Assembly (NCBI GenBank): GCA_047722305.1
Contig: JBDNYM010000006.1
Location: 213 to 64,212, forward strand
DNA from: Pseudoclavibacter sp.
GTDB lineage: Bacteria; Actinomycetota; Actinomycetes; Actinomycetales; Microbacteriaceae
DNA length: 64,000 nucleotides
Reading direction: 5' to 3'
A program made the translations under genes and the position numbers. The notes under the pieces are model-generated. The model was given only the letters and a program-made list of their open reading frames with translations, was not told where the DNA came from and ran no database searches. This document shows positions 246 through 40,404 of the stretch, piece by piece. How positions within the stretch are numbered: the stretch's first letter is position 1; each line of letters begins with the position of its first letter.

Positions 246-359
246 GCCCGGCAGGTGCGCCCACCGAATCGTGTCTCTAGACCCGCATCTAGCTGAGCCG
301 GTTCTCGGCCCTTCTGGCCCGCTGGGCCCGTGGAAGTCTCAACGACAACCCAGATCGAG

Positions 360-382
360 ATTCGTGACGAAAGTTCACGAAT
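360..382. promoter_or_regulatory. Inverted repeat ATTCGTGA-N7-TCACGAAT upstream of integrase 1.
   Basis: Perfect 8-bp arms read directly from the sequence, about 60 nt upstream of the ATG at 440. Confidence 0.3.
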
Positions 383-439
383 CCCGAAGGTTTCAGCGTA
401 TTCTCGAAGCATGATCGCGATTACTGAAGACGCGAGACG

Positions 440-1519
440 ATGAAGCTCGCCGCGGTTCGGAGCATCGGGACTGCCCGCGGGTGGCAGACCGAGGCCGACG
501 CCGCGGATTTCGAGCAAGAAATCATCGACCAGTTCGCGCTCGCGATGGCCGCTGCCGGGCTCAGCGATGGATACATCTCGCAGTGCCGTTCGGCGGTGTT
601 CGAGTTCCGCCACCACTTCGGGTTACCGCTCTGGCAGGCGAAGCCAGCCGATGCGGATGCCTACCTCGCGGGTCTGCGCCGGGCGGGACTCGCCGCCTCG
701 ACGCGGGCGAATCGGGCTGGTGCAATCGCGCAGTTCTACGACTTCACGATCGCCCGCTTCCAGGCCGACATCAATGCGCTGACAGACTTCGTGATCGAAC
801 AGCCCGTCGACGAGTTCAACCGGCAGTCAGGGTCGTCGCTGGGTAAGATCCGGGTTCCGCCATCTGACGTAGAAGTCGAAAAGCTGTTCACCTCCTGGGG
901 TGCCTCGTTGGAGAGCGAGCGTCGCTACTTGCCGGCGGCCCGGAACTACTTCGCCGCGTCACTGTGGCGCCGTGTCGGGATCCGCATCACCGAGAGCACG
1001 ATGCTCGACTTGCGTGACTGGCGCCCGGACCTCGGTTCGCTGGGAAAGTTGCACGTCCGCTTCGGGAAAGGATCGCGGGGGCGCGGTTCCAAGCAGCGCC
1101 TCGTGCCAGCGATCAACGGGACTGATCGCCTGATCGATTGGTGGCTGGGTGACGTGCGGCATCGATTCGGCGATGACTGGGAGAACCCGGATGCCCCGAT
1201 GATTCCGTCCGAGCGGTTCGATTCCGAACTCGCGCGGTGCTGCCGCGCGAGCGACGATGTCCTGCGCCGCGGCCTTCGGCAGGCAACAATCCGTTTCCTT
1301 CCAGCTTGGGACGGCCGGATGACCCCGCACGTGCTCCGTCACTACTGCGCGTCGTCGCTGTATCTCGCGGGCATGGATCTGAAGGCGTTGCAGGAACTTC
1401 TCGGGCACCAGTGGCTCTCGACCACAACGCAATATATCCACGTCTCGGATGGGCACGTCGAGGAGTCATGGATGAACGCGAACCGGAGACTTGAAGACCG
1501 ATTTGAGGAGATGGGCTGA
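440..1519 (+). CDS. Tyrosine recombinase / phage-type integrase.
   Basis: C-terminal HVLRHYCASSLYLAGMDLKALQELLGHQWLSTTTQYIH matches the HxxR ... GH ... Y catalytic region. There is also an N-terminal SAM-like core-binding region. Confidence 0.9.
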   Translation: MKLAAVRSIGTARGWQTEADAADFEQEIIDQFALAMAAAGLSDGYISQCRSAVFEFRHHFGLPLWQAKPADADAYLAGLRRAGLAASTRANRAGAIAQFYDFTIARFQADINALTDFVIEQPVDEFNRQSGSSLGKIRVPPSDVEVEKLFTSWGASLESERRYLPAARNYFAASLWRRVGIRITESTMLDLRDWRPDLGSLGKLHVRFGKGSRGRGSKQRLVPAINGTDRLIDWWLGDVRHRFGDDWENPDAPMIPSERFDSELARCCRASDDVLRRGLRQATIRFLPAWDGRMTPHVLRHYCASSLYLAGMDLKALQELLGHQWLSTTTQYIHVSDGHVEESWMNANRRLEDRFEEMG

Positions 1520-1523
1520 CGCG

Positions 1524-1850
1524 ATGAAATGGAACCTCCGAGTGCAGGCCGCTGAACGCGGGATCTGGAAGTCCGCCGAGCTGCGACGGATGCTCGCGGA
1601 CGCGGGACTCGAGATCAGTCTGGGGAAGATGTCGGCCCTCTGGACCGGTACCCCGACCACGATCCGGTTGGACGATCTCGATGTCTTCTGCCACGTTCTC
1701 GGCTGCCAACCCACCGACCTCCTCGTGCCCGAACCTGACAAAGTCGCTGCGCGGAAACAGCAGCCCACCGATAAGGGCGCGGTGAACGACGCACCGGGCG
1801 TGGTGAAGCCTCGTTTCGGGCCGAACGACCGGCCAGCGCCACCGGTATGA
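1524..1850 (+). CDS. XRE (Cro/C1-type) helix-turn-helix protein.
   Basis: MKWNLRVQAAERGIWKSAELRRMLADAGLEISLGKMSALWTG...LDDLDVFCHVLGCQPTDLL. The ATG at 1524 is 5 nt after the integrase stop, and its own stop overlaps the next start (ATGA). Confidence 0.8.
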   Translation: MKWNLRVQAAERGIWKSAELRRMLADAGLEISLGKMSALWTGTPTTIRLDDLDVFCHVLGCQPTDLLVPEPDKVAARKQQPTDKGAVNDAPGVVKPRFGPNDRPAPPV

Positions 1851-3595
1851 GTCCCGCCCGCGGCCGGGGCGGGCCGCTCAGCCCGCCCTTGGCCTGCACC
1901 GCGTGCGGGGTCAATCCGGCCGCGTGGCTCACGCCCCGAGTCGACTACTGCTACGACTGCCTCCCTGGCGGCCCATTCACGCCACCGCCCTGCCGGAAGT
2001 GCGGGTCAGCGAGCTACTACAGCCAGGGGCTCTGCGCGCACTGCCATCCCGGCAGCCCGGGTTTCGTCGGCTCCTGCCGAGACTGCCTCGCCTACGGCGT
2101 CTATCGGCAGCACAACTGGCGTTGCTGGAAGTGCCGATGGTGGTTCCAGCACTACCCCCAAGGTGAATGCTCATCCTGTCACCGCACGGTCACGATCGGC
2201 GAGCAGGACTACTGCCGGCTCTGCCTGGAGACCGCCCGCTACCACCAACAGCCCGGCGAACCACTCGATCTCGGCGCTGCACAGAAGTGGGGACAGCAGT
2301 TGTTCTTCGCATCGATGAACGACCCTCGCCGGCCTGCCGCGCTCCGCACGCGGCCAGCGATGGGCGTGGCGGAGGCGCTACTCCTCATCAACGCGCCGCC
2401 ACCGCCCGAGAGCACCCAGCAGGTCCTCTTCCACGTCGACCCTGACCCCGAGCTGCTGCGGCAGCGAGCGAACGAGCTTGCCCGCCGCGACATCACCTCC
2501 CGAACCGAGCACTTCCTCACCGCCCGCGCCAGCGAGTACGCCTGGAGCAAACGGCAAACGAATCAGGTTCGGCGCACCCTCAAGGTCCTGCAACTCGTGT
2601 TCCCCGAAGCCAACCTCCAGTTCCGAGCGTCCGACATCCTCGCGCTACGCAGCTACAACGACCACAACGTCCGCTCCACGATCGAAATCCTCGAAGACGC
2701 CGGCCTCCTCATCGATGACCGCGTACCCACCTTCGACCGGCTCTTCGCGCGCAAGACGGTGGATATCCCCGACCCGATGCGCACCCAACTCGAACTCTGG
2801 CGCACCACCATGGTGAACGGGTCACCGACGCCACCGCGCAGGCAACCCCGCGAAGCATCAACAGTCAAGGCCCAGATGTACGGCATCCTCCCGGCCGTGA
2901 CGACTTGGGTCGAGAACGGGCACACGAGCTTCGCCGAGATCAGCACCGATGACATTCTCGCCGTGCTGCCCGACGAGCCATCGCCACGGCACCTCATGCT
3001 GCTCGGCCTACGCACCCTGTTCAGCATCCTGCACGGGCAGAAGCAGATCTTCCACGACCCCACGAAGCGAATCCCGCTGCGACCGGCGAAGCGCAACGCA
3101 CCGCTCCCGATGCACCCGAACGCGATCCGCGACGCCCTCACGAGTCCCGACCCGGCAGTCGCGTTCGCCGTCTCCCTCGTCGCGTTCCATGCGCTCACGA
3201 CCCGGCAAGTCCAGCATCTGCTCCTGACCGACGTCGCCGACGGGCGCCTCACCATGCCCGACGGCCGCATCATCCCGCTCGCGAAACCCGTGCTCGTGCG
3301 CCTGACGGCGTGGCTCGACCACCGCACCCGAAGATGGCCCGAGACGCAGAATCCGTATCTGCTGGTCACCCAGCAGACCGGACCCAGGCTCACCCCGCCC
3401 GGCCGCAACTTCCCCTGGAAGAAGGCCGGAATCTCCGCCCAGGCGCTCCGTACCGACCGCATCCTCTATGAGGTTGAGCAGACCGGCGGAGACGTCCGTC
3501 GGGTCTGCGACCTATTCGGCATCACCATCGACACCGCCCTCCACTACGCCCGCACCGTCACAGACCCGGCCAACACCAAGGTCGACAGCGTGTAG
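1847..3595 (+). CDS. Large Cys-rich (multi CxxC Zn-ribbon) protein with a degenerate tyrosine-recombinase-like C-terminal domain.
   Basis: The N-terminal 130 aa carry at least 8 CxxC pairs. The C-terminus ([15 protein letters not shown] ... [10 protein letters not shown] ... [12 protein letters not shown]) resembles the R...xxLR...Y layout. Confidence 0.7.
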
Positions 3596-3672
3596 CCGCC
3601 GCTGAAGGTGAACCTTCGGCAAACACCGGCCCAGGTGCAGCCCATCGACTTGCCGACTGCTTTGATAGGCGT

Positions 3673-3684
3673 CAATATAGATGC
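3673..3684 (+). promoter_or_regulatory. -10-like box (GTCAATAT) placed for a leaderless trxB transcript.
   Basis: CAATAT lies at 3673-3678 and 6 nt separate it from the ATG at 3685. There is no Shine-Dalgarno. The same GTCAATAT box is seen at 11631. Confidence 0.4.
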
Positions 3685-4659: not shown

Positions 4660-4982
4660 GCACCGTCACCCCTGTCACCGATGCCACCTTCCAGGCGGAG
4701 GTGCTCGAGTCCGAGCTACCCGTCGTGGTCGACATCTGGGCGACCTGGTGCGGCCCGTGCAGGGCGATCGCCCCGATCCTGGACCAGCTCGCCAGCGAGT
4801 ACGCGGGCCGGGTAAAGTTCGTGAAGGTCGACGCCGACCAGAACCCCGAGACTGTGACCGCGGCCGGCGTGACCTCGATCCCGACCCTCGGCTTCTACCG
4901 GAACGGGGAACGGGTAGACGTGCTGATCGGCGCGCACCCGAAACCCGTCTACACCGCGAAGATCGAGGAACTGCTCGCATGA
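4656..4982 (+). CDS. trxA: Thioredoxin (ars-linked, arsX-like).
   Basis: WCGPC active site in [44 protein letters not shown] overlap with trxB. Confidence 0.93.
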
Positions 4983-12631: not shown

Positions 12632-14110
12632 CTAGATCATCCGGGTCGTGGTGTCGAACAAGGCCAACTCGTCAGTATGCATCTGATGCTGCACGACGAA
12701 GGAACGCTCTTTGATGCGCCACAAGCCTTGCCCGGTGCCGAGGCCGGGCAGGAGGTGCTGTTCGGTGCCGGTCAGGCCGAGGGTCTTGGCGGTCAGGGAG
12801 AGCTGGTCGGACTCTTGCCGGTAGATCACGCGGGTCTCGGCGTTGGCGAGCAGGCTGTTCGCCAGGGAGCGCATGGCCGAGCCTTGATCGCCCACGTTGT
12901 CGAGGTCGCTCAGCTTGTGGAAGACGAGCATGTTGGCCAGTCCGTAGTGGCGGGCGAGCCGCCATTGCGCGTCCATGCGGCGCAGCAGGGCGGGGTGGGC
13001 CATGAGTCGCCAGGCTTCGTCGTAGATCATCCAGCGTTTCCCGCCATTGGGGTCCATCAGCGCGGCTTCCATCCACGCGCTTGCGCAGGTCATCAACACG
13101 CTCAGCAGGGCGGCGTTCTCCGCGACCCGGCTGAGGTCGAGACTCACCATCGGCAACGACGGATCGAATCGCACCGTGGAGGGTCCGTCGAACAGGCCGG
13201 CGAGGTCGCCGCCGACGAGCCGGCGCAGCGCGTGCGCGACGAGTCGGCCGTCTTCGGCCAGCCGCCCATCTTCTTCGGCGGATGGGGTGAGGAGGCGGTC
13301 CACGACCATCGGCAGGATCGGCACCTCCGCGTCCCGCACTGCCGCGGTCAGTGCGGTGTCGATGGCGGTGTGCTCCAACGGTGACAGGTCGCGGCCGAGC
13401 ACGGTTTCCGCGAGAGCGCCCAGCAGCTCACGACGCCGCGACGCCAACGTGGACGCCCATTCCCGGTCCGACAGGCCCGAGGGGCGGTGGCCTTCATCGA
13501 GCGGGTTGAGCCGGGTGCGGAGTCCGTGGCCGAGGACGATGGCCTTCCCGCCGACTGCTTCGGCGACGGCGGTGTGCTCGCCCTTGGGGTCGCACGCGAT
13601 GTAGACGCGGCGACCGAATGGCAACGATCGCGTGTAGAGCGACTTCGCCAGGCTCGACTTTCCCGAGCCCACGATGCCGGCGAGGATCATGTTCGGCGCG
13701 GTGATGATGCCGCGCCGGTACAACTCCCACGGGTCATACACGAAGCTCCCACCGGAGTACATGTCCTGCCCGACGAACACCCCTTGGCTGCCGAGGCCAC
13801 CTTCGGCGAGGAACGGATACTGCGCCGACAGCACCGCGCTGGTGTCTTGATGGCGCGGGAGCCGGAACCGGCCCGGCGTCCGCAGCATCGCCGCTCCGGG
13901 TTCGCCGGCCTTCGGCAGATAGGTCGTTGCCCGCCGTTCCGCCCGCTCTGCCTCCGCTTTGGCTTTGGCGGCTTCGGTCTCGGCACGGCGTTGCTCGGCG
14001 ACGAGCCGGGCGGCGGCCTGCCGGCGTTGCTTGCGGTACTTGCGCCGCTCCGACGCCGGGGCGACGAGCACCGAGGTGTGCAGCTTCTCCCGCTCGCTCA
14101 CAGCGACCAC
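12632..14110 (-). CDS. Conjugative T4SS ATPase, VirB4 C-terminal-domain-like.
   Basis: Walker A GIVGSGKSS and Walker B MIYDEAWRLM (a DEAW box is typical of VirB4/TraE). No TM segments. It lies in an operon with T4SS membrane components. Confidence 0.75.
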   Translation of the reverse strand: MVAVSEREKLHTSVLVAPASERRKYRKQRRQAAARLVAEQRRAETEAAKAKAEAERAERRATTYLPKAGEPGAAMLRTPGRFRLPRHQDTSAVLSAQYPFLAEGGLGSQGVFVGQDMYSGGSFVYDPWELYRRGIITAPNMILAGIVGSGKSSLAKSLYTRSLPFGRRVYIACDPKGEHTAVAEAVGGKAIVLGHGLRTRLNPLDEGHRPSGLSDREWASTLASRRRELLGALAETVLGRDLSPLEHTAIDTALTAAVRDAEVPILPMVVDRLLTPSAEEDGRLAEDGRLVAHALRRLVGGDLAGLFDGPSTVRFDPSLPMVSLDLSRVAENAALLSVLMTCASAWMEAALMDPNGGKRWMIYDEAWRLMAHPALLRRMDAQWRLARHYGLANMLVFHKLSDLDNVGDQGSAMRSLANSLLANAETRVIYRQESDQLSLTAKTLGLTGTEQHLLPGLGTGQGLWRIKERSFVVQHQMHTDELALFDTTTRMI

Positions 14111-14532: not shown

Positions 14533-14566
14533 GCCGGGCAGGTGCACCCCCGCCCCCGGCAGGGGT

Positions 14567-15376: not shown

Positions 15377-15443
15377 GGCGGGCCTCCTTCAACAAGGGTT
15401 CAGACGCCCGATAGGTGCACGACCTGGCCGATAGCGTTGGAGC

Positions 15444-15968
15444 ATGAACACCGAGGCAGTCGCACTTCTGATATCCGCTATCTCTCTTGCGCTTGCTGGT
15501 GTGTCACTCGGATGGCAGATCGCTCAGTGGCTTCTTTCTGCCGGTCGCCCAAAGGCCACGCTGATGCATGGCATGCTCCAAGGCGGCAATGCGCTGGTCG
15601 GTCCCGTCACGAAGACGGGCAAGCCGTTCGGTCTTGAAGGGCTCGTCAAGCAGGGCTTCGGAGGGCAAGAGGTCATCGGCGTTCAGGTCACGAACCACGG
15701 ACGGGCAGCCGTGACCATCGAGAGCGTGTCACTTTGCCCCCGCGGAGGAACGATGAGGTTCGTGCCCGTGGACCAACGGATCGGTCCCGACCTTCCCTAC
15801 TTGCTTGAGCCGGGAACGAACCAGGGCTGGTATGTACCCATTGACGTCGGGATACTTCTTGCTCAGACCTCACGCGAGGCGGCGCGGGAGAGTGTCACCG
15901 GCGTGTATATGGTTGCGAAGCTCGCAACGGGTCGGGAGGTCTCGACCCCGACGACTCTCCGTATGTGA
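15444..15968 (+). CDS. Hypothetical N-terminally membrane-anchored protein, opposite strand, lower GC.
   Basis: MNTEAVALLISAISLALAGVSLGWQIAQWLL TM helix followed by a soluble beta-rich-looking domain. Convergent with the 16023 gene. Confidence 0.6.
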   Translation: MNTEAVALLISAISLALAGVSLGWQIAQWLLSAGRPKATLMHGMLQGGNALVGPVTKTGKPFGLEGLVKQGFGGQEVIGVQVTNHGRAAVTIESVSLCPRGGTMRFVPVDQRIGPDLPYLLEPGTNQGWYVPIDVGILLAQTSREAARESVTGVYMVAKLATGREVSTPTTLRM

Positions 15969-19169: not shown

Positions 19170-19290
19170 GACGGTTCTCCATTCACGCTGAGGGTTGCTT
19201 CTGTCCACAGGTGCACCCCGTCCGCCCGGCATCGTCTTCGTGTTGACATGCGAAAGGCCCGCCCCGGAGGGCGGGCCAGGCGGTGGAGGG

Positions 19291-19560
19291 TCAGAGTCGT
19301 TGGCCGAGTGCGATGAGCCAGTTCATCCATGCCACCCCGCCGCCGGCGAGCACGGCGGCTCCGAGGGCGACGAGCACTCCGACCCTTCCCTTGGCGGCGG
19401 CGGAGTAGTTGCCGTGTGCGGCGGCGACGGCCCAGCAGATCGCGGAGACGATCAGCATGAGCACGGCGATGATGAGCACGAACATGAACAGCGCACCGAC
19501 GACCTGTTTCAGATCACCGATCCCTGCCAGGCCGTCGAAGTCCGGGAACACGTCCATCAC
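19291..19560 (-). CDS. Small two-TM protein, paralogue of 18900-19169.
   Basis: Also 89 aa with the same layout (DFDGLAGIGDLKQVVGALFMFVLIIAVLMLIVSAICWAVAAAHG...). Confidence 0.6.
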   Translation of the reverse strand: MMDVFPDFDGLAGIGDLKQVVGALFMFVLIIAVLMLIVSAICWAVAAAHGNYSAAAKGRVGVLVALGAAVLAGGGVAWMNWLIALGQRL

Positions 19561-19654
19561 GCACCAACCGGGGATCGCAAGTATTCGAAGCGTTCGAGAT
19601 CCATGCTGGCGAGGTGCGCAGGCAGGACCGCCGCCGTCGGGCTAGCGTTGAAGT

Positions 19655-20101
19655 GTGGACGCATGGACTGACGAGCCGGGTGTGGTGGTGTTGCCCGACG
19701 GGCGACGCATCCGCGGCGTCGGCGTGCGCCGGCCGCGCGGCGATGTGCCTGCCCCCGATTTCGCGGTCTATCTACTTGGCCGTGACCCGGCGCCTGGTCC
19801 TTGGCCTCATCGCTGGGTGCGGTGGCGAGACTTCCGGCTGCCGGACTCGACCGCCGACGCGACGACGGCGCTGCGTGAGGCGTGGGAACGTGCCGGTGAG
19901 GAGCGAGTCGAGATCGGGTGTGGCGGCGGCATCGGGCGGACCGGGACGGCTTTGGCGCTGCTGGCAACGATGAGCGGTGTCGCGCAAGAAGACGCGGTGG
20001 CGTGGGTCCGTTCCCACTATCACCGGCGAGCTGTCGAGACGGGCAGGCAACGACGCTGGGTAGAGCAGACCGCGACCTTGCTTCAGACGGAGCGGGAGTG
20101 A
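19655..20101 (+). CDS. Cys-based protein phosphatase-like protein (CX5R).
   Basis: VEIGCGGGIGRTGTALALL fits the C-x5-R-(S/T) P-loop of PTP/DSP enzymes. 148 aa. Confidence 0.55.
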   Translation: MDAWTDEPGVVVLPDGRRIRGVGVRRPRGDVPAPDFAVYLLGRDPAPGPWPHRWVRWRDFRLPDSTADATTALREAWERAGEERVEIGCGGGIGRTGTALALLATMSGVAQEDAVAWVRSHYHRRAVETGRQRRWVEQTATLLQTERE

Positions 20102-21776: not shown

Positions 21777-22124
21777 TCAGTCCCCAGCAGGCTTGATGAC
21801 TGCGCGAGTTGGACGGTTCCGGCTGGGCTTGGACGGCGTGCTGGTGCCGGTGGTGCCGGTCTTGCGTCCGCGCCGCGAGCTGGTGGCGACGTAGGGCTCG
21901 ATCAGGTCGTTGGGGGTGACGTCGAAGATGTCGCAGAGCGCGGCGAGCAGCCGCATGTTCAACCGCTCCGGCTCGCCGACCACGATCCGGTAGACCTGGG
22001 TCGAGGTCATCACCACGCCCCGGTCGGCCAGCAGCGGCACCAGTTCGGTGGTGGCGAACATGGCGTGCTCGTTCATGATCTTGCGCAGGTGCCAGTGGTA
22101 GGCGACGGTCTTGCTCATCGGCAT
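21777..22124 (-). CDS. XRE-family helix-turn-helix protein.
   Basis: MPMSKTVAYHWHLRKIMNEHAMFATTELVPLLADRGVVMTSTQVYRIVVGEPERLNMRLLAALCDIFDVTPNDLI. The start at 22124 overlaps the integrase stop. Confidence 0.8.
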   Translation of the reverse strand: MPMSKTVAYHWHLRKIMNEHAMFATTELVPLLADRGVVMTSTQVYRIVVGEPERLNMRLLAALCDIFDVTPNDLIEPYVATSSRRGRKTGTTGTSTPSKPSRNRPTRAVIKPAGD

Positions 22125-23281
22125 GATCCTTCCTCGGTTGCGGTCGGTGGGGTGAACGCGGCGTCCAGGGCACGGCGCAGGGTGCGGTTGCGGTAGTCGC
22201 CGGAGACGCCGGTGTAGAGGGCTGTGGTCGATCCCCACCGGTGCCCGACCTGCTGCTGCACGAACAGCGGGTCGAAGCCGTCCTCGATCAGATGGGTCAC
22301 ATAGGAGTGCCGCAGGCAGTGCGGGTGCAGCGCCGGGTCGAAGCCGAGGTCGTCGCGGTACTCGGCGAACCGCATCCTGATGTAGCTGCCCGTGATCCTG
22401 GATTGTCGTTCGGTCGGCCACAGCATCCCGGCGCCTGCCGTGTCGAACAGCGGCAGCACGTCGGTGACGTATTCCTCGATCACTGGGCGGGTCCAGTCGA
22501 ACACCGCCAGCACCGCCCGCCGACGGGGCGGGGAGCCTTTGCTGGCCTTGCCCCAGCGGACGTTGCAGACCCCGTACCGGCCGAACTCGGTCGCGGTCGG
22601 GTTGCGGGTGAAGTCATGCACGTCGAGCATCCCGACCTCGCGGCGGCGCAGCCCGAAGGCGTAGATCATCTTGAACAGGGTCGCGTCGCGGAACACCGAC
22701 TTCCAGCCCTTCTTCCCGCGCGTGCGAGCATGGTCGACGCGATCGTCGGCGTAGTCGAAGAACGTCTGTACCTCGTCCCGCGACAGCGGCCGGACCGCCG
22801 GGCGTGCCTCGTGATCGCTGGTGTGGATCGCGGTGTTCCACTCATGGCAGACCTGCACCGGATACGTCCCGAACAGGTCCTCGCATCGCTCGATCCAGCC
22901 GTAGCGGCGGTCGGTCAGGTAGTCGCAGAACAACGCGACCGCGTTCTGATACGAGCGGATCGTGCCGTGCGAGCACGGCTTGTCGCCAGAGACCAGCTCG
23001 GTCGTCCACTCCTCGACGTCGGCGGGCGACCACTCCCACGGCAAGCTCCCGCAGAACCCCGCGAACCGGCGCACCTGCGACAAGCGCGCCCCGATCGTCT
23101 TCGCGTTCAGCATCCGCGAGGACTGCTGCGCCGACCAGCCCGTGAGCATGTCATCGAAGACCTGCTCCGCCGGACGCAACAACGCCACGTTGCCCGCCCG
23201 CAACGCCGTCACCGATCCGGGCCAGTTCCCGTCCTCGAAGTCCACCCCAACAGTCTTACATCTAATGTATGAAAAGTACAT
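22115..23281 (-). CDS. Tyrosine recombinase / integrase.
   Basis: HPHCLRHSYVTHLIEDGFDPLFVQQQVGHRWGSTTALYTGV (HxLRH ... GH ... Y). The true start may be the GVDFEDG codon near 23245, because the first 12 codons lie in AT-rich repeats. Confidence 0.9.
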   Translation of the reverse strand: MYFSYIRCKTVGVDFEDGNWPGSVTALRAGNVALLRPAEQVFDDMLTGWSAQQSSRMLNAKTIGARLSQVRRFAGFCGSLPWEWSPADVEEWTTELVSGDKPCSHGTIRSYQNAVALFCDYLTDRRYGWIERCEDLFGTYPVQVCHEWNTAIHTSDHEARPAVRPLSRDEVQTFFDYADDRVDHARTRGKKGWKSVFRDATLFKMIYAFGLRRREVGMLDVHDFTRNPTATEFGRYGVCNVRWGKASKGSPPRRRAVLAVFDWTRPVIEEYVTDVLPLFDTAGAGMLWPTERQSRITGSYIRMRFAEYRDDLGFDPALHPHCLRHSYVTHLIEDGFDPLFVQQQVGHRWGSTTALYTGVSGDYRNRTLRRALDAAFTPPTATEEGSCR

Positions 23282-23412
23282 CTAACGTAAGACTTGGTGC
23301 GTTTCCCCTGGTCAAGAGCCGGGTTCAAGACTCAGATCAGTGACCCCTGGTACCCTTGCCTGACCAGCGAATACGCACGATTCCAGCCGTCGCGGATTAC
23401 ATCTAACGTAAT
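23255..23412 (-). repeat. Three direct copies of an AT-rich 12-14-mer, (T)TACGTTAGATGTA or ACATTAGATGTA on the minus strand, at the integrase-proximal end of element 2.
   Basis: Plus-strand copies are cttacatctaatgta (about 23255-23269), gtacatctaacgtaa (about 23277-23291) and ttacatctaacgtaa (about 23398-23412). The sequence is strikingly AT-rich for this replicon. Confidence 0.6.
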
Positions 23413-23417: not shown

Positions 23418-25028
23418 CTAGTTTGCTTTCACGGTGACGTGCAGGTGGTCGTAGTGGCCGCCGGTGACGTTGCCGGGGTCGTGCATTCCGCCGCCGTTGT
23501 AGGGCCGCCACCCCTGATCGTCGCGGGCGAGGGACCAGATTTTGCCTTGCCAGATCAGGTATTCGATCCCGAGCACTTCGGCGTTGTCCTTCATCCAGTT
23601 GGTGACCTTCCAGCCGGCCTCCAACTGGCCCGGTGTCGGATAGTGGCCGATGGCGTTGCCGAAGGTGATGTCGCACGCCCGCCCGAGCGGGTGCTCCGAC
23701 TTCGTGCCGGGGCGCGGTGAGTAACAGCCCCACCCGGTGTCGGGGAACGCAGCCTTGGTCTGGGCCATGAGGTGCGCGAGCCGCGCGGTGATCTTCCCTG
23801 AGCTGGTGGGGTCGTCCACCATCTGATCCGGGTCACCCGTCAACGGTGTGGGCGCGCCAGCCGTACCGGACTGGCAACCCGCGGCTGGACCGGTGGCTGC
23901 TTCGGGGAGGTTCGCGGCGCCGTGGTCGTTGAGCCACTTGGCGGGGTCGATGGCTTCGGCGTTGGTGCCGCCGAGGCGGACCTCGAAGTGCAAGTGGTTG
24001 CCGGTGGACATGCCGGAGGTGCCGACGTCGCCGATGTGCTGCCCGGCGGCCACGCGGTCGCCGACGTGGACGAGGATGCCGGCCTGCCACATATGCGCGT
24101 ACGCGGTCGCGACGGTCTTCCCGTCTATGGTGTGCTCGACGACGATAAGACCGCCATAGCCACCGCTGAACTCGGCGACCGTCACGGTGCCGTCCGCGGC
24201 GGCGAGGATCGGGGTGCCGGCCGGAGCGGCCAGGTCCAGGCCTGTGTGGAAGGAGTGCTCGCCGGTGATCGGGTGGATGCGCGGCCCGAACCCGTCGGTC
24301 TTGACCCACGTCCCTTCCGGCAGCGGGAACACCACGCGCGACGACTCGGCCACGCCGACGACGGGGCCGCCGCGCCCGCCGGCGCGGGTGAGGGCGTCGA
24401 GGATCGCATCAGCCACGGGCGCGTAGTTGCGGTACCTGTCGGGAAACGCGCTGACCTCGACCGACTGTGCAGCTTCGCCGGGGTCCATCTGTTCCCAGCC
24501 GGGAATGTCCAGAAGTCCGCGCGGGCTCGGGTAGTTGGGGCCGGCCGGGCCGCCGAAAAACGCGGCGGCTTGGTAGTTCGGGTCCATCAGCTCGGCGACG
24601 GTGCCCCACCCTGATTGGGGGCGCATCTGGAACAGGCCGAGGGAGTCGTGGTCGCCGCCGTTGCCGTCGTTGGGGTAGTTCGCGGACTCGGGGTAGGTAC
24701 CGGTGTTGCTGAGCATCCGCAGCGTGGACTCGGTGAGCGCCGCCATCAGCGCGACCTTCACCCCGGGCCGGCCCACGCCGTCGATCCGGCCGCCGACCGT
24801 GATGATCGTCGCGGCGTGGGTGAGCTGTCGCTTGTTCAGGGTGAAGGTGTAGCCGTCCGCGGTGGTCACTTGGAGGCTGTCGGGGACGTTGCCGACCGAG
24901 AGCGCCCCGCCGGTGGTGGTGCAGGCGGCGATGGCGGCGGGGTTCATCAGTACCCCGATCGCCAGCAGCAGCATCGCCGGGCCGAAGAACAGCGCGGCGA
25001 GCGCGAGGACAGCGAACTTCTTGAACAC
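23418..25028 (-). CDS. Three-domain cell-wall hydrolase: SLT-like, M23 peptidase and LAS (M15/VanY-like) domains.
   Basis: DSLGLFQMRPQSGWG (transglycosylase-like), HTGLDLAAP...GNHLHFEV (M23), and SEHPLGRACD...GGHYDHLHV (Hx6D...HxH). GTG start at 25028 (MFKKFAVLALAALFF signal/TM) after GAGGACGG. Confidence 0.8.
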   Translation of the reverse strand: MFKKFAVLALAALFFGPAMLLLAIGVLMNPAAIAACTTTGGALSVGNVPDSLQVTTADGYTFTLNKRQLTHAATIITVGGRIDGVGRPGVKVALMAALTESTLRMLSNTGTYPESANYPNDGNGGDHDSLGLFQMRPQSGWGTVAELMDPNYQAAAFFGGPAGPNYPSPRGLLDIPGWEQMDPGEAAQSVEVSAFPDRYRNYAPVADAILDALTRAGGRGGPVVGVAESSRVVFPLPEGTWVKTDGFGPRIHPITGEHSFHTGLDLAAPAGTPILAAADGTVTVAEFSGGYGGLIVVEHTIDGKTVATAYAHMWQAGILVHVGDRVAAGQHIGDVGTSGMSTGNHLHFEVRLGGTNAEAIDPAKWLNDHGAANLPEAATGPAAGCQSGTAGAPTPLTGDPDQMVDDPTSSGKITARLAHLMAQTKAAFPDTGWGCYSPRPGTKSEHPLGRACDITFGNAIGHYPTPGQLEAGWKVTNWMKDNAEVLGIEYLIWQGKIWSLARDDQGWRPYNGGGMHDPGNVTGGHYDHLHVTVKAN

Positions 25029-25722: not shown

Positions 25723-25773
25723 GCCCGTCAGGTGCACCCCGACCGCCAGCCGGGAACAGCCGAGGATCGTGAA

Positions 25774-26763
25774 TCAGAGTGCGCGCAGGCGTGGGGTCGC
25801 GGGTTCTTGTTCGCGGGCGGCGTGGAGGTCGGTGGCGAACTGGCGGGTGCCTTCGGCGGTCGCGTAGAACGCTTCGGCCTGCTCATCGGTGAGCTGGGCG
25901 GCGAGCTCGTCCAGGTCGTAGTGCAGCCACCACGAGTCGAGTTCGGTCCAGGTCAGCACGAACGCCCGCACCGCATACCGGGCGTCCGGCACCACGGGCG
26001 CGGCGGGCTGGGGCTTCTTCGCCTTCTTCTTGCCCTTCTTCGTCTCGGCGTCCACGCGAGCCAGTGCCTGTTCGGCCAGGTCGTGCAGGTGCGCGTCGTC
26101 GGCGGCTTGGTGGATGTCGCGGATGCGCTGATACACCGGATCGACCGGCCCGCCGGCCTCGATCTGCACCAACCCCGCCTGAGCCTCGGCGCGCAGCGGT
26201 TCGGGTACGTCGGGGTTGGTGGCGAGGTGTTGCAGGTAGCCGATCTTGTCCATCGTCTTGTAGGAGGGTGCGCCGGGGATCATCGCGGCGGCCTGCTCGC
26301 GGACCTTGCCCGGCGGGGTCAACGGGGGTGGAAAGTTTCCACCCCCGTTCCACCGCGGCTGATTCTCGGCCGAGAACTGCGTCGCAGCGTCCCGCCGGGC
26401 GGCGTCTTCGGCCATGAGTTCCTTGATTTCGCGGTAGAGGCCGGCGGCTTCTAGCGGGGAGAGGGTCTTGTGGAGCTGGTTGTCGTCCTGCTCGGCCAGC
26501 AGGTGTCCCAACCTGTCCGAGATGGATGAGCGCACCCAGACGTTGACGGTGCGCCAGCCGAGCTGTCGGATCGCCGCGAGCCGGCGCACCCCGCACACCA
26601 GCAGCCCGTCAGGGGTGATGGTGATGGGTTGCAGCAGCCCGTCCCGCTCGATCGACGCCGCGAGCGCGTCGAGGTCACCGAGGTCTCGGCGGTGGCGGCG
26701 GCCGACCTGGATCGACTCGACGGTCCGGTCGAGTTCGATGTGCCCCATCGCGACGGTCATCAC
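25774..26763 (-). CDS. ParB-like nuclease-domain protein.
   Basis: DLGDLDALAASIERDGLLQPITITPDGLLVCGVRRLAAIRQLGW (ParB N-terminal box with GxRR). Confidence 0.8.
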   Translation of the reverse strand: MMTVAMGHIELDRTVESIQVGRRHRRDLGDLDALAASIERDGLLQPITITPDGLLVCGVRRLAAIRQLGWRTVNVWVRSSISDRLGHLLAEQDDNQLHKTLSPLEAAGLYREIKELMAEDAARRDAATQFSAENQPRWNGGGNFPPPLTPPGKVREQAAAMIPGAPSYKTMDKIGYLQHLATNPDVPEPLRAEAQAGLVQIEAGGPVDPVYQRIRDIHQAADDAHLHDLAEQALARVDAETKKGKKKAKKPQPAAPVVPDARYAVRAFVLTWTELDSWWLHYDLDELAAQLTDEQAEAFYATAEGTRQFATDLHAAREQEPATPRLRAL

Positions 26764-27623
26764 GCACCCCTACGTCGGGTGTGGGGTGCGGCGTGGCTGA
26801 TGGTCGCCACGAGCCCGTCATCGCCCAGCAGCACGGGCAGGCCCTCGCCGATCAGCAGCCGCAGCAAGATGCCGCGTCCTTCACCGGTCGCCCCATAGCC
26901 GGGAGTGGTACGGCCCAGCAGCACCCGCAACAGCACCGTCCACGACGCGGCGGGAACATCGAGCAGGGCGCGGGCGTGCCGGTCGCGGCGCAGCGCCTCA
27001 TAGGCGCCGGTGCGTGACCCGATCCGGGCGAGGGCTTCGCAGACGTGCTCGATCGCCGGGCGGGCGGTGCCCTCGGGCCAGCCCAGCAGCATGAACAACA
27101 AGATCGCGTCCTCCACCGCGCCGGTCACCGACGCCGGCTCACCCACATCCGCATCCACCTCGTCGTCGTGGTGGTGAGGGTCGGTGACGTGGAACGCCGG
27201 GTGGTAGTCCGACAGGGTGTTCTCGCGTTCGGAGAGCCGTTCGGGGTCGTGGAAGCAGGAGATGTGCGGACGCCGCGCTTGATGCACCGAGCACAGCAGC
27301 CCTTGGCCGCGCTCTTCGGCGATGCAAGTGATCCGCACCGCATGCGTGACCACGCCCCAGGGGTCGTCGGCCTCACGGGCGGCGCGGGTACGCATCACGT
27401 CGAACGCCGCCGACGCGGCCTCCCACGGGTCCAGGCCGTGCTTGCGCGCCAACGGCGTGTACTTGTCCGCGGCGTAGGTCATCAGCTCGGCGGCTACCGG
27501 GTCGTGCTCCCACGCTCCGGGGCCGGCGTCGTGGAGCCGGTGCAGCAGGGCGCGCAGGCCCTCACCGCTGGTGTAGTCCTCACCCGCAGGATCGGTCGCC
27601 GTCGTCGTGGTGGTTGTGGTCAT
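26760..27623 (-). CDS. Hypothetical protein.
   Basis: ATG at 27623 (MTTTTTTTATDPAGEDY...) preceded by AGGAGGTG. Its stop overlaps the ParB-like start. Confidence 0.55.
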   Translation of the reverse strand: MTTTTTTTATDPAGEDYTSGEGLRALLHRLHDAGPGAWEHDPVAAELMTYAADKYTPLARKHGLDPWEAASAAFDVMRTRAAREADDPWGVVTHAVRITCIAEERGQGLLCSVHQARRPHISCFHDPERLSERENTLSDYHPAFHVTDPHHHDDEVDADVGEPASVTGAVEDAILLFMLLGWPEGTARPAIEHVCEALARIGSRTGAYEALRRDRHARALLDVPAASWTVLLRVLLGRTTPGYGATGEGRGILLRLLIGEGLPVLLGDDGLVATISHAAPHTRRRGA

Positions 27624-27715
27624 GGTCGAGGCACCTCCTGGCAGGCAGGTGCGCCGGTCGCTCCTGGCGACCGTCACCCCGCCGTGCTGGGTGTCCATGA
27701 CTCATCACCACCCCG

Positions 27716-28123: not shown

Positions 28124-28815
28124 GGTGTCGCTCCCTCCAAGACAGCCCGTGGTTGCTCGGGCTCATCGGGGTGGTGCGCGCCGGCGAACCAGCGGCCCAC
28201 CGTCGAGGGATGCACATCCAGCGTCCGGGCGATCTTCTTGTTCGACCACCCCGACTCCCGCAGCTCGGCCGCTCGTGCCCGACGATCCGGCACGTCGGTA
28301 GGAACGAGGCGCGCCAGCTCGGGGATTGGCGACGCCACGGAAGGCAGTTCGTTCGGCGCGACTTCGAGCGCGACCGGCTCACGAACTTCGGCGGCTTCGG
28401 CAGCGGGTTGGGTGGTGGTGCGGATGAGGACGACGGTCAGATGGGTCGAGGCGAGCAGCACCACGGGCGGGACGGCCGCGACCGCCGCCGCCAGCCCCGC
28501 GGGTACGTCGGCGTCCGCGGCGACGATCGCGTGCAGCGCGTTCGCGGTCACCGACACCGCGGCACCACCGATCAGCAGCGTCCACGGATACCAAGCCGCA
28601 CCTTCGCCCGCGAGCGCGACCACCGCGACCGTAGAGACGACGATCACGCCATCGACGATCAACGGCCACGCCCACGCCTGCCCGTCCCCGATACCGGCCC
28701 GGCGGGCCAGATCAGCCAGGGCAGTGAAGGACAGCCAGAACGCGCCAGCCGCGATGAACACCGTCCCAACGACCGACGTGATGACCGCCCACCTCCGGCC
28801 CCGCCACCCATTCAC
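28120..28815 (-). CDS. DUF2637-like membrane protein with a C-terminal HTH.
   Basis: Four TM helices (WAVITSVVGTVFIAAGAFWLSF ... AWPLIVDGVIVVSTVAVVAL ...). The C-terminus RESGWSNKKIARTLDVHPSTVGRWF is an HTH. Confidence 0.7.
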   Translation of the reverse strand: MNGWRGRRWAVITSVVGTVFIAAGAFWLSFTALADLARRAGIGDGQAWAWPLIVDGVIVVSTVAVVALAGEGAAWYPWTLLIGGAAVSVTANALHAIVAADADVPAGLAAAVAAVPPVVLLASTHLTVVLIRTTTQPAAEAAEVREPVALEVAPNELPSVASPIPELARLVPTDVPDRRARAAELRESGWSNKKIARTLDVHPSTVGRWFAGAHHPDEPEQPRAVLEGATP

Positions 28816-36109: not shown

Positions 36110-36141
36110 GGCGTTTCCTATGACTGTTGTTCAGCCCAGCC

Positions 36142-37008: not shown

Positions 37009-37171
37009 CAAAAGGGGGCCTTCCGGGAGAGCAGGACGACGACAGACACGGCCGATGGGTAGGCGAAGGGAGCCGGCCGCGAAGCGCACCGGTGTCAAGA
37101 GCAGCGGCAGGACGGTGGGGAGCCCGCACCACGGGTGGTCGGGCTCCCACGCCCGCTCCTGTCGAGGACGG

Positions 37172-37792
37172 CTAGAGGCTGTCCAGAATCTCTTGCATCG
37201 TGGTGACCTCGGCCTTCTGGCCGTCGATGACCTGCTGCGCCAGTTCCAGCACATCCGGGTTCTGCCCGTTGGACAGCTCCATCTCGGCCATCATGATCGC
37301 GCCGTTGTGGTGCTCGATCATTCCTTGCAGGAACAGTCGGGTCGCCTCGACGCCGGTCGCAGACTCCAACGCGGTCATGTCCTCCTCGGACATCATGCCG
37401 CCGCCGTGGTCCATGCCGTCCATGCCGCCCATGGACGGGTCGGGTGAGGGCAGACCCCACTCCTGCAGCCAGCCCTGCATGGTCTCGATCTCGGGCCCCT
37501 GGGCGTCCTTGATCTGCTGAGCCAGCGTCACCACCCGCTCATCGATCCCGTCTTTGCCGAGGATCAGATCAGCCATCTCGATGGCCTGCTGATGGTGCGG
37601 GATCATCATCGCCACAAACATCTCGTCCGCTCCGTTGAAGTCCGCGCTGGACTCCGACGAGGAGGGGCTGGAACTTGACGAGCCATGATCCATCCCGGGC
37701 ATCCCGCCGGGGTCGTTATTCTGCCCGCAACCGGCGAGCACCAGAGTCGTAATGAGCGCGCTCGAAGCCAGCGCAAGCATGCGCATACGCAT
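37172..37792 (-). CDS. DUF305-family lipoprotein.
   Basis: Lipobox LVLAGC and duplicated MIPHHQQAIEMA / MIEHHNGAIMMA motifs. Confidence 0.85.
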   Translation of the reverse strand: MRMRMLALASSALITTLVLAGCGQNNDPGGMPGMDHGSSSSSPSSSESSADFNGADEMFVAMMIPHHQQAIEMADLILGKDGIDERVVTLAQQIKDAQGPEIETMQGWLQEWGLPSPDPSMGGMDGMDHGGGMMSEEDMTALESATGVEATRLFLQGMIEHHNGAIMMAEMELSNGQNPDVLELAQQVIDGQKAEVTTMQEILDSL

Positions 37793-37909
37793 GATGAAGT
37801 TGTCCTTTCGTCAGTCGAATGAAGAGTCGCGGTCCATCCACACCCCGGTCGGGGCATGACAGACAGGCATCACCCGAACCCGATGGTCCGTGGGACGCCA
37901 CAGCGCAAC

Positions 37910-38446
37910 TCAGGTACGACTGATCGAAAGAACGATGAGAGAAGGCGGACGCGCGCGTGGCAGCACCGCGCCCAGCAGCGGCAACGCGCGAACAGCAAGC
38001 AGCCGCGTCAGCCACCCGCGGCCCAGTAGCCTGGGAGCGAGCAGGAGGACCAAGCCGATTAGGAGCGCGATCACGCACCCCAGCATCAGCATCGAATGGC
38101 TCGGTGCCGGTTCCCCGCACCCATCACAGTGCGTCTCACCGGCTGCGGCGGCATCGCTCGTGTTGGAGCCGGCCATCTGATCCGCTAAAGGGGCCGACAT
38201 GGCCTCGTCCGGACCCGCCTTGGCAGCGATGTGTTCGGTCTCGATCGTCAGGGTCGGGGAGGTATGCCCCATCGGGCCGGACATGCTCAGAACGTGCATC
38301 GCGAACAGCCCAGCGATCACCATCATCAGCAGGCCGAACACGAGCAGGCCAGGACGACAAGGCGACCCGCCGGTCATCACCGAGCGAAGAGCACCCATCG
38401 CCGTCCTCCTTTCGACCTCCGAGTCCATAAGCCTCACGGTTTGCAT
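37910..38446 (-). CDS. Small membrane protein of the copper cluster (DUF6153-like).
   Basis: LLVFGLLMMVIAGLFAMHVL TM helix, a central CDGC, and a second TM helix. The start is uncertain (38446 or 38398). Confidence 0.55.
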   Translation of the reverse strand: MQTVRLMDSEVERRTAMGALRSVMTGGSPCRPGLLVFGLLMMVIAGLFAMHVLSMSGPMGHTSPTLTIETEHIAAKAGPDEAMSAPLADQMAGSNTSDAAAAGETHCDGCGEPAPSHSMLMLGCVIALLIGLVLLLAPRLLGRGWLTRLLAVRALPLLGAVLPRARPPSLIVLSISRT

Positions 38447-38519
38447 GATCGTTGCTCACTACGGTAAAGCATCGCGCCACGAAGCCACCTGAGCGCCCGT
38501 GGCGGCGATGCTCAACCGG

Positions 38520-38765
38520 TCAGGCGGCGTGCGCGTATCGCGCGGGGTCGGCGTCCCACAGCGGGCCGCATCCGGCGCAGCAGAACCAGTACCGCTTGCC
38601 CTCGTAATCCCGGTACAGGCCCTGCTGCTCAGCCTGCGCCGGGTCCACCAGATTGTTCGGCATCACCGGACACCGCACCAAGTTCTCCGCGTCCGGTGCC
38701 GGGTGATGGTGATGAGGGTGAGACTGCGCCTCGTGCCCATCGTGATGATGATCGTGACTCGACAT
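38520..38765 (-). CDS. YHS/TRASH-domain metal-binding protein with a His-rich N-terminus.
   Basis: MSSHDHHHDGHEAQSHPHHHHP... then CPV...YEGKRYWFCCAGCGPLWDADPARY. ATG at 38765. Confidence 0.8.
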   Translation of the reverse strand: MSSHDHHHDGHEAQSHPHHHHPAPDAENLVRCPVMPNNLVDPAQAEQQGLYRDYEGKRYWFCCAGCGPLWDADPARYAHAA

Positions 38766-38847
38766 GCTCCACGTCCTCTCTAACGATGTTCCGCTGCCGT
38801 GATTCTGCGCCGACGTCGTAGCTGACGTTGCGCGACTACCTCCAACA

Positions 38848-38864
38848 ATACCCCATAGGGGTAT
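38848..38864. promoter_or_regulatory. CsoR-type operator palindrome ATACCCCATAGGGGTAT.
   Basis: Perfect 7-bp arms (ATACCCC / GGGGTAT) about 85 nt upstream of the YHS gene. It matches the GC-tract palindromes known for CsoR-family copper repressors. Confidence 0.55.
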
Positions 38865-39000
38865 ACTGACATCGACTGCACCCCCATCCCATCGATTGAT
38901 CCGATGCCGACACGCACATCGTCGAGCAATGCTGCTCAAAGGCCCGCTCCGATGCAGCCATGTCGCGGCTGGGCCGGTGCTCATCGCCCGCCGTCGTTCA

Positions 39001-40101
39001 TCAAGTCATCGACAGCGCCAGGGCAGCCGAGGCTTGAAGCGGAACGACCCCGTTGCCGAGGGCGGTGATCTGCTGGTTCTGCGTCAGTCCGTGGTCGGGG
39101 TCAGTGACCCATCTGGCCGGGAGCCCCATGATCCATTCCACGAACTCGGGTGCTGGTCGTGGCCCTTCGCCTTCGTTCAGGAGGTTCAAGAGTGCGGGGG
39201 CTGGTGCTTCCCGTCCGGTGATGTGTTCCCATCGGGCGATGGCTCCGGCGTAGCGTCCCCAGCGGTGAAGATGCCGTCGATCAGGTGCCACAGCGTCTCC
39301 GGCTCGGCTTGCTTGCTCGGCGAGCCATCCGGTCCGTGAAGCGCAAAGTCGATGAGCTGATGGCTCAACGTGATAGTGCCCCGCCGAGCCCGAACTTGAT
39401 CGACCGTCTCCCCTCCGCGCTTGGCATCCGTCGCTACCGGTGTCCGGAAGAATGCGGTGGGCGAGGATGAAGACTCGGAAGCGGGGATGTGGTGCGCCGA
39501 TGGCGGAAGCGGGTAGCCCGATCCATCGTGCATCCATCCCGAGGTCGGCCAGGTCTCCGAGAACGGCGCCGGCCGCCCGGAGAGGTCGAGCTGCGTTGTC
39601 TCCCAAACCCCACGGGTCGAGTTCCAGGTTGCGAAGGGTTGCAGGATTGGGGGTTGCATCGTCGGGGTCGCGGTGCTCATCGTCGTCTCCTTCCAGGGGT
39701 GTGCGGACGGCCATCGTGGAGAGCAGGCCGCGCACGTTCTCGATGACAACCAGCTCGGGTTGTAGCGCGTCGATCGCTCCGGCCATGTGTGCCCAGAGGC
39801 CGGATCGTGTGCCGGGCGCGAGGCCGGCACGTCGGCCGGCGACCGATACGTCTTGACAGGGGAATCCACCACAGAGCACATCGACGGGTTCGACGTCGCG
39901 CCAGTCGATGGTGGTGATGTCGCCGAGGTTCGGGGCGTCAGGCCAGTGGTGGGAGAAGATGCGGGCGACGTGCTTGTTGATTTCGGAGAACCAGATCGTC
40001 TCCGCCCCGAGGGCGTGTTCGATAGCGAGGTCGAGCCCGCCGTACCCAGAGAAGAGCGATCCGACTCTGAGTGGGCGGTCGTGCTGAGTGGGGTCGTGCA
40101 T
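39001..40101 (-). CDS. DNA (cytosine-5)-methyltransferase, orphan.
   Basis: Motif I LFSGYGGLDLA, motif IV GGFPCQDVS, motif VI ENVRGL, and C-terminal motif X GNGVVP. No adjacent endonuclease gene. Confidence 0.92.
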   Translation of the reverse strand: MHDPTQHDRPLRVGSLFSGYGGLDLAIEHALGAETIWFSEINKHVARIFSHHWPDAPNLGDITTIDWRDVEPVDVLCGGFPCQDVSVAGRRAGLAPGTRSGLWAHMAGAIDALQPELVVIENVRGLLSTMAVRTPLEGDDDEHRDPDDATPNPATLRNLELDPWGLGDNAARPLRAAGAVLGDLADLGMDARWIGLPASAIGAPHPRFRVFILAHRILPDTGSDGCQARRGDGRSSSGSAGHYHVEPSAHRLCASRTGWLAEQASRAGDAVAPDRRHLHRWGRYAGAIARWEHITGREAPAPALLNLLNEGEGPRPAPEFVEWIMGLPARWVTDPDHGLTQNQQITALGNGVVPLQASAALALSMT

Positions 40102-40404
40102 GAGGGCTCCGGCCGATGGGTGATCCCCGACCGGACTCTGTAAGGGAAGTCGTCGCCGGGCTGGTCATCCGGCAGGTGCACCACCGTCCCGAACTGCCAT
40201 CCGTCGATCAGCGGCACGCCGCGACGATCCCCGCCCCGCGCACCTTCGAGAACCGCGACGTTGGCTCCGCGCCAACTCGCTCCCCGCCGGAGTCGCCCGG
40301 CCCCACCTGAGCCACCACACGTCTTTCTGTAGAGGCGCGAGCGGGCATTATCGCGGCCGAGTGCGGCGGCTTCCGGCTCACCTTGCGGGCACGGAAGGGA
40401 GGCC
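40102..40404. promoter_or_regulatory. Divergent intergenic region, candidate oriT / relaxase promoter.
   Basis: This is positional inference only: it lies immediately upstream of the MOBF relaxase. It contains one copy of the CAGGTGCACC motif at 40173-40182. Confidence 0.3.

Follow-up and report, generated by a model that had tools for sequence, protein, structure and literature searches.

The window analysed here is a stretch of 64,000 nucleotides (nt) from Pseudoclavibacter sp. (assembly GCA_047722305.1, contig JBDNYM010000006.1, positions 213 to 64,212 of the forward strand), taken from a host assembly of 2.2 Mb in 95 contigs with a GC content of 69.6%. From the contig end to about 56 kb (approximately 1–56 kb of the window), Pfam scans outline an actinobacterial integrative conjugative element (ICE) of the type IV secretion system (T4SS) type, and our subject is a short motif, GYGCACCT(G/C/A), repeated upstream of its backbone operons. 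The element carries a tyrosine integrase; arsenic, cadmium and copper cargo; transfer-type genes (a coupling-protein/VirB4-like ATPase, DUF6112 and related small membrane proteins, and a SCO6881-family membrane protein); further backbone genes for M23 peptidase, ParB-like, DUF2637-HTH, Prim-Pol and ArdC-M78 proteins; and also a C5 methyltransferase, a TrwC relaxase (on the plus strand) and DprA. T4SS-type ICEs of Actinobacteria are already known and were defined by a 2011 survey, in which promoters are not mentioned (PMC3218068).

Motif copies in the window

A first-pass annotation of this DNA had described the 10-mer CAGGTGCRCC upstream of most minus-strand transcription units, and its coordinates for the exact copies are correct: CAGGTGCACC lies at 14539, 19208, 25729 and 40173, and CAGGTGCGCC at 252 and 27646. 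These six matches, on the plus strand as written and all intergenic, read GG-GYGCACCTG on the minus strand. A seventh exact match, absent from that earlier list, lies at 23068–23077 on the opposite strand within an integrase open reading frame (ORF), and looks like a chance match. Seven copies compare with 0.74 expected (none of 100 dinucleotide shuffles reaches seven), and chance occurrence of the motif is excluded. Genome-wide there are 58 exact copies in the 2.2 Mb (Poisson P about 1e-4 for seven in the window, on the count alone); six of the seven window copies are intergenic, whereas 48 of the 51 copies outside the element lie in coding DNA. One-mismatch variants of the whole 10-mer are not enriched (25 vs 19.9), since the information resides in the 9-mer GYGCACCTS and its surroundings.

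The anatomy described below comes from 89 non-redundant intergenic sites, from which a position weight matrix (PWM) was built on a core seeded by a regular expression. In the window the PWM finds nine minus-strand sites scoring at least 13, and none above 10.3 on the plus strand. The total is thus nine same-oriented intergenic copies of GYGCACCT(G/C/A): the six exact ones; two weak copies at 15412–15420 and 19611–19619, which are genuine in that related elements carry the motif at the same positions; and one at 46220–46228, 5′ of dprA, that had been missed. Within the 2.2-Mb host genome the four highest PWM scores all belong to the element, and nearly all other hits are in coding DNA, which means that the motif does not serve as promoter of a host sigma regulon. 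The view that a cis-regulatory signal unites the backbone transcription units in one regulon is supported.

Four of the nine sites, all on the minus strand, directly precede a start codon. The common leader proposed for the starts at 245, 14532 and 25722, which lacks a Shine-Dalgarno (SD) sequence, is confirmed and reads GYGCACCTG-N6-ATG-AA. At 252–260, GCGCACCTG (PWM 24.2; orthologous sites in 7 loci) has its predicted transcription start site (TSS) at the A of ATG 245, where a gene (MKRSEPDQ...) begins, predicted to be leaderless, that runs past the contig end. At 14539–14547, GTGCACCTG (PWM 26.2; predicted TSS at the A of ATG 14532) precedes a putatively leaderless 144-aa gene, followed by the type IV coupling protein (T4CP)/VirB4-like ATPase at 12632–14110. 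The same word at 25729–25737 (PWM 26.2; 68 loci; predicted TSS at the A of ATG 25722) precedes the 226-aa membrane protein gene, again apparently leaderless, and then the M23 peptidase (23418–25028). The fourth site, GCGCACCTC at 19611–19619 (PWM 16.8; predicted TSS at the A of ATG 19604), lies before a conserved micro-ORF of 15 codons at 19557–19604, MDLERFEYLRSPVGA, which begins at the predicted +1 and would be leaderless. Its stop overlaps the DUF6112 start (GTGATG), and the same micro-ORF (MDFERFEYLR...) is found in several related elements.

The remaining five are followed by a start 17–65 nt downstream with a separate SD between. GTGCACCTA at 15412–15420 (PWM 17.5; 27 loci; predicted TSS at G 15405) is followed by the SD AAGGAGG and ATG 15376 of a 269-aa gene. 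GTGCACCTG at 19208–19216 (PWM 14.2; 58 loci; predicted TSS at G 19201) is followed by GGAGAA and GTG 19169, which opens an operon of an 89-aa pilin-like gene, the 457-aa SCO6881-family gene and a 489-aa gene. At 27646–27654, GCGCACCTG (PWM 18.6; 60 loci) has its predicted TSS at A 27639, the first base of the SD AGGAGG, before ATG 27623 of a conserved 287-aa protein, here called p287 (gene at 26760–27623), the first gene of a putatively motif-driven operon that continues with the ParB-like gene. The site GTGCACCTG at 40173–40181 (PWM 20.9; predicted TSS at G 40166) holds up as well; the ATG at 40168, 4 nt after it, does not, as it is unconserved in relatives and the real start is ATG 40101 of the C5 methyltransferase, after a leader of about 65 nt. 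Finally, GCGCACCTC at 46220–46228 (PWM 13.1; predicted TSS at G 46213) is followed by the SD GGAAGGA and the dprA ATG at 46187.

Motif anatomy and predicted start-site geometry

Across the 89 sites the conserved unit is G, Y (C in 62%, T in 29%), G, C, A, C, C, T and then G (75%) or C/A. Orthologous variants change C to T at the fourth position (GYGTACCTG), while ACCT is practically invariant. The palindrome GGTGCACC, previously taken for the core, is incidental and occurs in a minority of sites only, because the conserved core is asymmetric: the C at position 2 breaks it. No conserved −35-like element was found, either in the 89 sites or in the site classes.

Downstream of the motif the signature is equally regular. 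Of the sites, 92% have a purine seven bases after CACCTG and 83% a pyrimidine immediately before that position; in each of the 12 site classes and at all nine window sites, too, the Y-R step keeps this distance. A start codon follows 4–6 nt after the motif, without SD, at 41 of the 89 sites (CACCTG-N6-start codon in 17 non-redundant sites, N5 in 5); in the other 48 the SD and start codon lie further downstream, and the purine is retained in 46 of them. The 41 include 19 GTG sites with a spacer of 4, which are better read as belonging to the leadered class because an SD and start follow downstream. In about half of the site classes the purine is the A of an SD-less start codon.

This geometry has a yardstick in the host itself. 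Among long ORFs of high third-position GC (GC3), the distance from TANNNT to the start codon peaks at 6 nt (85 cases) and 7 nt (25), with 1–12 at other spacers; TANNNT-N6/7-start is the known geometry of actinobacterial leaderless promoters, as in Mycobacterium TSS maps. The window holds an internal yardstick too, a canonical leaderless promoter at 15432–15446 (+) before a divergent cargo gene (TAGCGT-TGGAGC-ATG), with the same geometry as CACCTG-N6-ATG. The correspondence with TANNNT-N6-start therefore places CACCTG at −12 to −7, the spacing of the −10 hexamer in a sigma-70-family promoter (hexamer at −12 to −7, 6–7 nt to the start), given the TSS that we infer. The TANNNT consensus itself is not matched: A−11 is present, position −12 is C (rarely T), −7 is G, C or A and never T, and −10 to −8 are invariably CCT. 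In the 60 nt upstream of the 89 sites a TANNNT was seen in only three cases, and in the 50 nt downstream in one. A consensus promoter/terminator scan of 12–31.5 kb gave no sigma-70-type match; the scanner is too AT-oriented for a 69% GC genome.

Two inserted cargo genes, both preceded by a canonical −10 hexamer, TAGCGT, run opposite to the backbone. The one at 15444–15968 (+) encodes a 174-aa protein with one N-terminal transmembrane helix and no family match, and the one at 19655–20101 (+) a 148-aa protein in which the CX5R phosphatase signature reads CGGGIGRTG.

Hairpins precede the motif in two site classes. The T4SS-operon class has strong hairpins 20–40 nt upstream, with stems of 11–16 bp, T-rich tails and sequences that differ between elements; in the window an intrinsic-terminator-like hairpin, GGCCCGCCC-TCCG-GGGCGGGCC-TTTCG, lies at 19251–19277 (−) after DUF6112, 35 nt upstream of the motif ending at 19216 (folding free energy −22 kcal/mol). 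At the p287 site a hairpin abuts the promoter (27656–27672 (−), GGTCGCC-AGG-AGCGACC), and in related loci it is kept through fully compensatory changes, G-U pairs included, in three unrelated stem versions: CTCG..CGAG, CCCGCAG..CTGCGGG and CGGTCGCC..GGCGACCG. It could be a terminator lacking a U-tract or a structure-specific regulatory site. Given these hairpins, transcripts from upstream would be expected to terminate just at the start of the motif. Read-through cannot supply sites 252 and 15412, because the genes preceding them are divergently oriented. Taken together, the 89 sites show no excess of upstream hairpins (22 of 89, vs 32% in controls).

Conservation across related elements

With the M23 protein as query, about 30 of 401 same-order genomes yielded relatives, and 80 loci with 10-kb flanks were gathered from many Actinomycetota orders, with gene calls made by a crude GC3-based caller. 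Related elements occur in Propionibacteriales, Micrococcales, Actinomycetales, Streptomyces, Pseudonocardia and Dietzia. The motif is kept at orthologous positions in more than 80 related elements, and in the 80 loci blastx of the DNA downstream defines at least 12 orthologous site classes, which cover essentially every backbone operon. The site 5′ of the 226-aa gene is typical: motif and N6-ATG are kept in about 20 of 27 elements (60–93% M23 identity), and G-Y-GCACCT-G, 6 nt and ATG form the sole alignable stretch of an otherwise unalignable spacer. In two distant loci the motif before this gene is shifted further upstream and followed by an SD. Elements with 53–61% M23 identity still carry the motif, including a site 5′ of an ArdC-PrimPol operon that the more distant elements add, and in the most distant ones CACCTG alone is retained, at fewer sites.

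Strand and position are strongly biased. A count of G[CT]GCACCTG over the 80 loci gives 211 copies on the backbone strand versus 27 on the other. By the gene calls, 211 intergenic copies fall in 223 kb on the backbone strand, versus 147 in 1.22 Mb of coding DNA, an 8-fold higher density, and within intergenic DNA the gene strand has 211 copies versus 16 on the other (13-fold). When the 8-mers of 499 non-redundant intergenic segments are counted without bias, GCGCACCT comes first, with 74 segments forward and 5 reverse. In a second, distant conjugative element, on host contig C37, the motif was not found.

A pattern scan of the 401 genomes for GYGCACCTG-N5-Y-ATG was confounded: in the four places examined, the recurrent hit GCGCACCTGCC(C/G)GGCATG matched the conserved peptide GAGGAAHLPGM, which is probably purE. 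This 18-mer, identical to two window promoters, encodes AHLPGM within that peptide, as does the 18-mer GCGCACCTGCCCGGCATG, and is a trap for pattern searches.

Some further features of the window deserve mention. At 28170–28185 (−) a degenerate motif copy, GCGCACCAC, lies in the 3′ end of the DUF2637-HTH gene, where in many relatives an internal copy, GCGCACCTC, appears to drive the next gene (a p135 homologue). The plus-strand relaxase gene (TrwC) is preceded by a poor motif-like word, GCGCACCTT, at 40239–40247 (+), which has no Y-R step, and by a −10-like hexamer, CATTAT, at 40346–40351 (+), 47 nt before its SD and GTG; it seems to be outside the motif regulon. In the low-GC cargo region, a 956-aa ORF at 51279–54149 (−) has no Pfam match.

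Proposed promoter function, a possible reader and known systems

Standing at the −10 position before nearly every backbone operon, the motif is therefore most likely the element's own non-standard promoter, and we believe that GYGCACCT(G/C/A) is probably the core of a dedicated −10-only promoter class of this family of actinobacterial T4SS-type ICEs. The motif would replace the −10 region, with G-Y-G at −15 to −13 ahead of the CACCTG hexamer and no −35 hexamer. The TSS would be the purine 7 nt beyond the motif; where this is the A (or G) of the start codon the mRNA would be leaderless and need no SD, and at the other sites a short leader with an SD would follow the start. The reader is probably something besides SigA alone, because the motif lacks T−12 and T−7 and fixes three positions that a housekeeping sigma leaves free. 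The host has only four sigma-70-family genes, and its extracytoplasmic function (ECF) factor is SigH/SigR-like with its closest relatives in Microbacteriaceae. The simplest reader would be an element-encoded specificity factor acting on the host core RNA polymerase, a factor that would turn on all the conjugation, replication and partition operons in concert.

The best candidate for such a factor is p287. It is a conserved backbone gene, present in 43 of 46 loci with full flanks and also in distant elements, and its own promoter carries the motif even there, which would give positive feedback if p287 were the factor. The family comprises 345 clusters at 50% identity across Actinomycetota, all called “hypothetical protein” where named, and p287 has no Pfam, NCBIfam or PDB sequence match. 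A first AlphaFold2 model from 13 sequences was poor, and Foldseek found nothing with it; a model from a 46-sequence alignment (predicted local distance difference test score, pLDDT, 87) has two helical domains joined by a disordered linker. Its best local Foldseek matches, none of them significant, are sigma factors: sigma-S (probability 0.38, root-mean-square deviation 4.3 Å over 91 columns), a phage sigma factor (probability 0.60), SigI1, sigma-32 and others. As a recognisable sigma-70-family protein p287 was rejected, having neither a Sigma70_r2/r4 profile match nor a significant fold match. Covariation of motif variants with p287 divergence gave no usable signal. As the specificity factor, p287 is only a candidate, and a weak one. 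Equally tentative is the wider proposal of a self-contained orthogonal transcription system, in which a hitherto unrecognised specificity protein, with the p287 family as best candidate, might direct the host core RNA polymerase to −10-only GYGCACCTG promoters and, through positive feedback on the p287 operon, switch on the conjugation backbone across many actinobacterial orders.

Several points weigh against the motif being a promoter with a reader of its own. Pfam and family scans find no sigma, RNA-polymerase or WhiB domain in any element protein. Whole-protein Foldseek searches of p287 against the PDB and a viral library gave nothing significant (E-values above 0.8), and hhalign comparison of p287 with the host ECF factor and SigA was negative (probability below 1%); a homologue search with the host ECF factor had returned only near-identical SigH-type proteins, of no use for a diverse profile. 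The invariance of the motif core is partly by construction, given the seeded PWM. Many of the 80 loci are close relatives, so that counts over them overstate independent events and the 12 site classes are the safer unit. Lastly, several sites lie in gaps of 34–51 nt between co-oriented genes, where read-through is possible and a role in RNA is conceivable.

The alternative of an operator, or an L5-like stoperator, through which an element protein (DUF2637-HTH, ParB-like or p287) represses or activates the backbone operons and the transcripts themselves begin at different, unrecognised promoter elements, we consider unlikely. It would be at home with many copies before backbone operons and with HTH and ParB-like proteins conserved in the backbone, and a factor would bind the motif in either case, which makes it compatible with a promoter. 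Precedents are the asymmetric, orientation-dependent repressor sites spread through the intergenic regions of mycobacteriophage L5 and the KorA/KorB operators of RK2 over −10 regions; like stoperators, the sites are asymmetric, keep one orientation to transcription and lie in short intergenic gaps. A pure operator does not account, however, for the constant 6 nt between motif and start codon, for the Y-R step, for the dichotomy between SD-less and SD-containing starts or for the placement of sites after terminator hairpins, where a new promoter is needed. There is no conserved dyad symmetry, the intergenic orientation is 211 versus 16, no canonical −10/−35 lies nearby to be overlapped, and no CI-like repressor is conserved in the backbone. 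The palindromic operator for an HTH, XRE or ParB protein put forward in the first-pass annotation fits poorly for the same reasons of asymmetry, co-orientation, −10-like spacing and lack of a nearby canonical −10. Its XRE candidate, moreover, belongs to a separate small element inserted at 21777–23412 (integrase at 22115–23281, an HTH_26 gene and a 544-aa Cys-rich ORF region), which splits the backbone between the M23 and DUF6112 operons and is present in only 9–11 of the 80 related loci.

Action in RNA, either as a 5′-UTR or intercistronic translation element or as an endonucleolytic cut that makes leaderless mRNAs, is improbable. The copies in 34–51-nt gaps (14539, 25729) and the fixed distance to AUG in SD-less genes agree with it, and the start-associated sequences of Cluster K mycobacteriophages are a loose precedent; five of the nine window sites, however, lie 17–65 nt upstream of the start with an ordinary SD between. 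No upstream transcript is expected at 252 and 15412, after divergent genes, or at 19208 and 27646, after terminator-like hairpins, no Rfam family matches, and the flanks hold no conserved pairing partner. Still less credible is a recognition or methylation site tied to the orphan C5 methyltransferase or a restriction system, the alternative offered earlier. The T variants do contain the GTGCAC palindrome (the ApaLI site; CACCTGC is the AarI site), and the methyltransferase is the first gene after the 40173 copy; a homologue of this enzyme, however, occurs in 2 of the 80 loci, whereas the motif is in all 80 and is conserved in elements without it. Moreover, 62% of the non-redundant sites read GCGCAC rather than GTGCAC, only 43% continue with C to CACCTGC, and strict orientation and position relative to gene starts are unexpected for a modification site. 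A sigma-54-type promoter (−24 GG/−12 GC) would draw on the invariant GC at −13/−12 from the predicted +1 and on GG at −25/−24 in 71–75% of non-redundant sites, with the canonical GG-N10-GC spacing. We rejected it as having almost no chance of being right: there is no rpoN, the sigma-54 DNA-binding domain (PF04552) having no match in the host genome or the element proteins; the GG is not universal, with only about half of the site classes carrying it 10 nt upstream of GC; sigma-54 promoters do not contain the ACCTG that is strongly conserved here at −11 to −7; and the element has no enhancer-binding AAA+ activator.

A dedicated −10-only promoter class would matter beyond this element. Actinobacterial T4SS-type ICEs are widespread, with cargo for metal resistance and phage defence. 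One private promoter word before every backbone operon would predict their transcription units and leaderless starts, would point to one master factor, and would give a ready-made orthogonal promoter/factor pair for high-GC Gram-positive hosts. If the promoter interpretation is true, an element at the −10 position can be wholly re-specified, CACCTG for TANNNT, with the leaderless geometry kept.

Literature searches with the motif string returned only unrelated primers and eukaryotic E-boxes, and concept searches no description of the motif. The nearest parallels are the leaderless promoters of Actinobacteria (Mycobacterium, Corynebacterium), which have a −10 TANNNT, no conserved −35 and the TSS at the start codon. 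The motif resembles them in being a single element at −12 to −7, 6 nt from a start codon that would be +1, with no −35 and no SD. It differs in that the hexamer is CACCTG (C/T at −12, A−11, C−10, C−9, T−8, G−7), extended by G-Y-G at −15 to −13, and in that it occurs in one mobile-element family only and not at host promoters. The late promoters of phage T4, TATAAATA, are also −10-only and are read by gp55, a phage alternative sigma system. There too, one element of 8–9 bp near −10 defines a promoter class of a mobile element, without a −35, for the joint switching of a gene set. In the present case, however, the element is a conjugative one of high-GC Gram-positives, the sequence is unrelated and no sigma-like gene is recognisable. 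The putative sharing of one promoter by the operon of candidate p287, together with its predicted two-domain helical structure and flexible linker, recalls autoregulated ECF operons; unlike ECF promoters, with their conserved −35 AAC and CGT-type −10, the motif has neither, and p287 lacks profile similarity to ECF factors or SigA.

Global conjugative regulons provide a further comparison: KorA/KorB of IncP RK2, the SetCD boxes of SXT/R391 and the AcaCD boxes of IncC. As in these, a short sequence is repeated before most transfer and maintenance operons, presumably for one element-encoded regulator; those sites, however, sit beside ordinary sigma-70 promoters, whereas here the repeat itself holds the −10 position and no ordinary promoter is found. 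The L5 stoperators and the Cluster K start-associated sequences are asymmetric, co-oriented repeats of about 13 bp in short intergenic gaps of actinobacterial mobile genomes, and the motif shares each of these properties. Unlike it, stoperators stand at no set distance from a transcription start or start codon, and the Cluster K sequences include the SD and always lie 3–8 bp from the start, whereas the motif lies 6 nt from SD-less starts or 17–65 nt from SD-containing ones. Mobile elements with a promoter class, and presumably a specificity factor, of their own are a known kind; what is new is this sequence, without a recognisable sigma, and a −10 element re-specified within the leaderless geometry.

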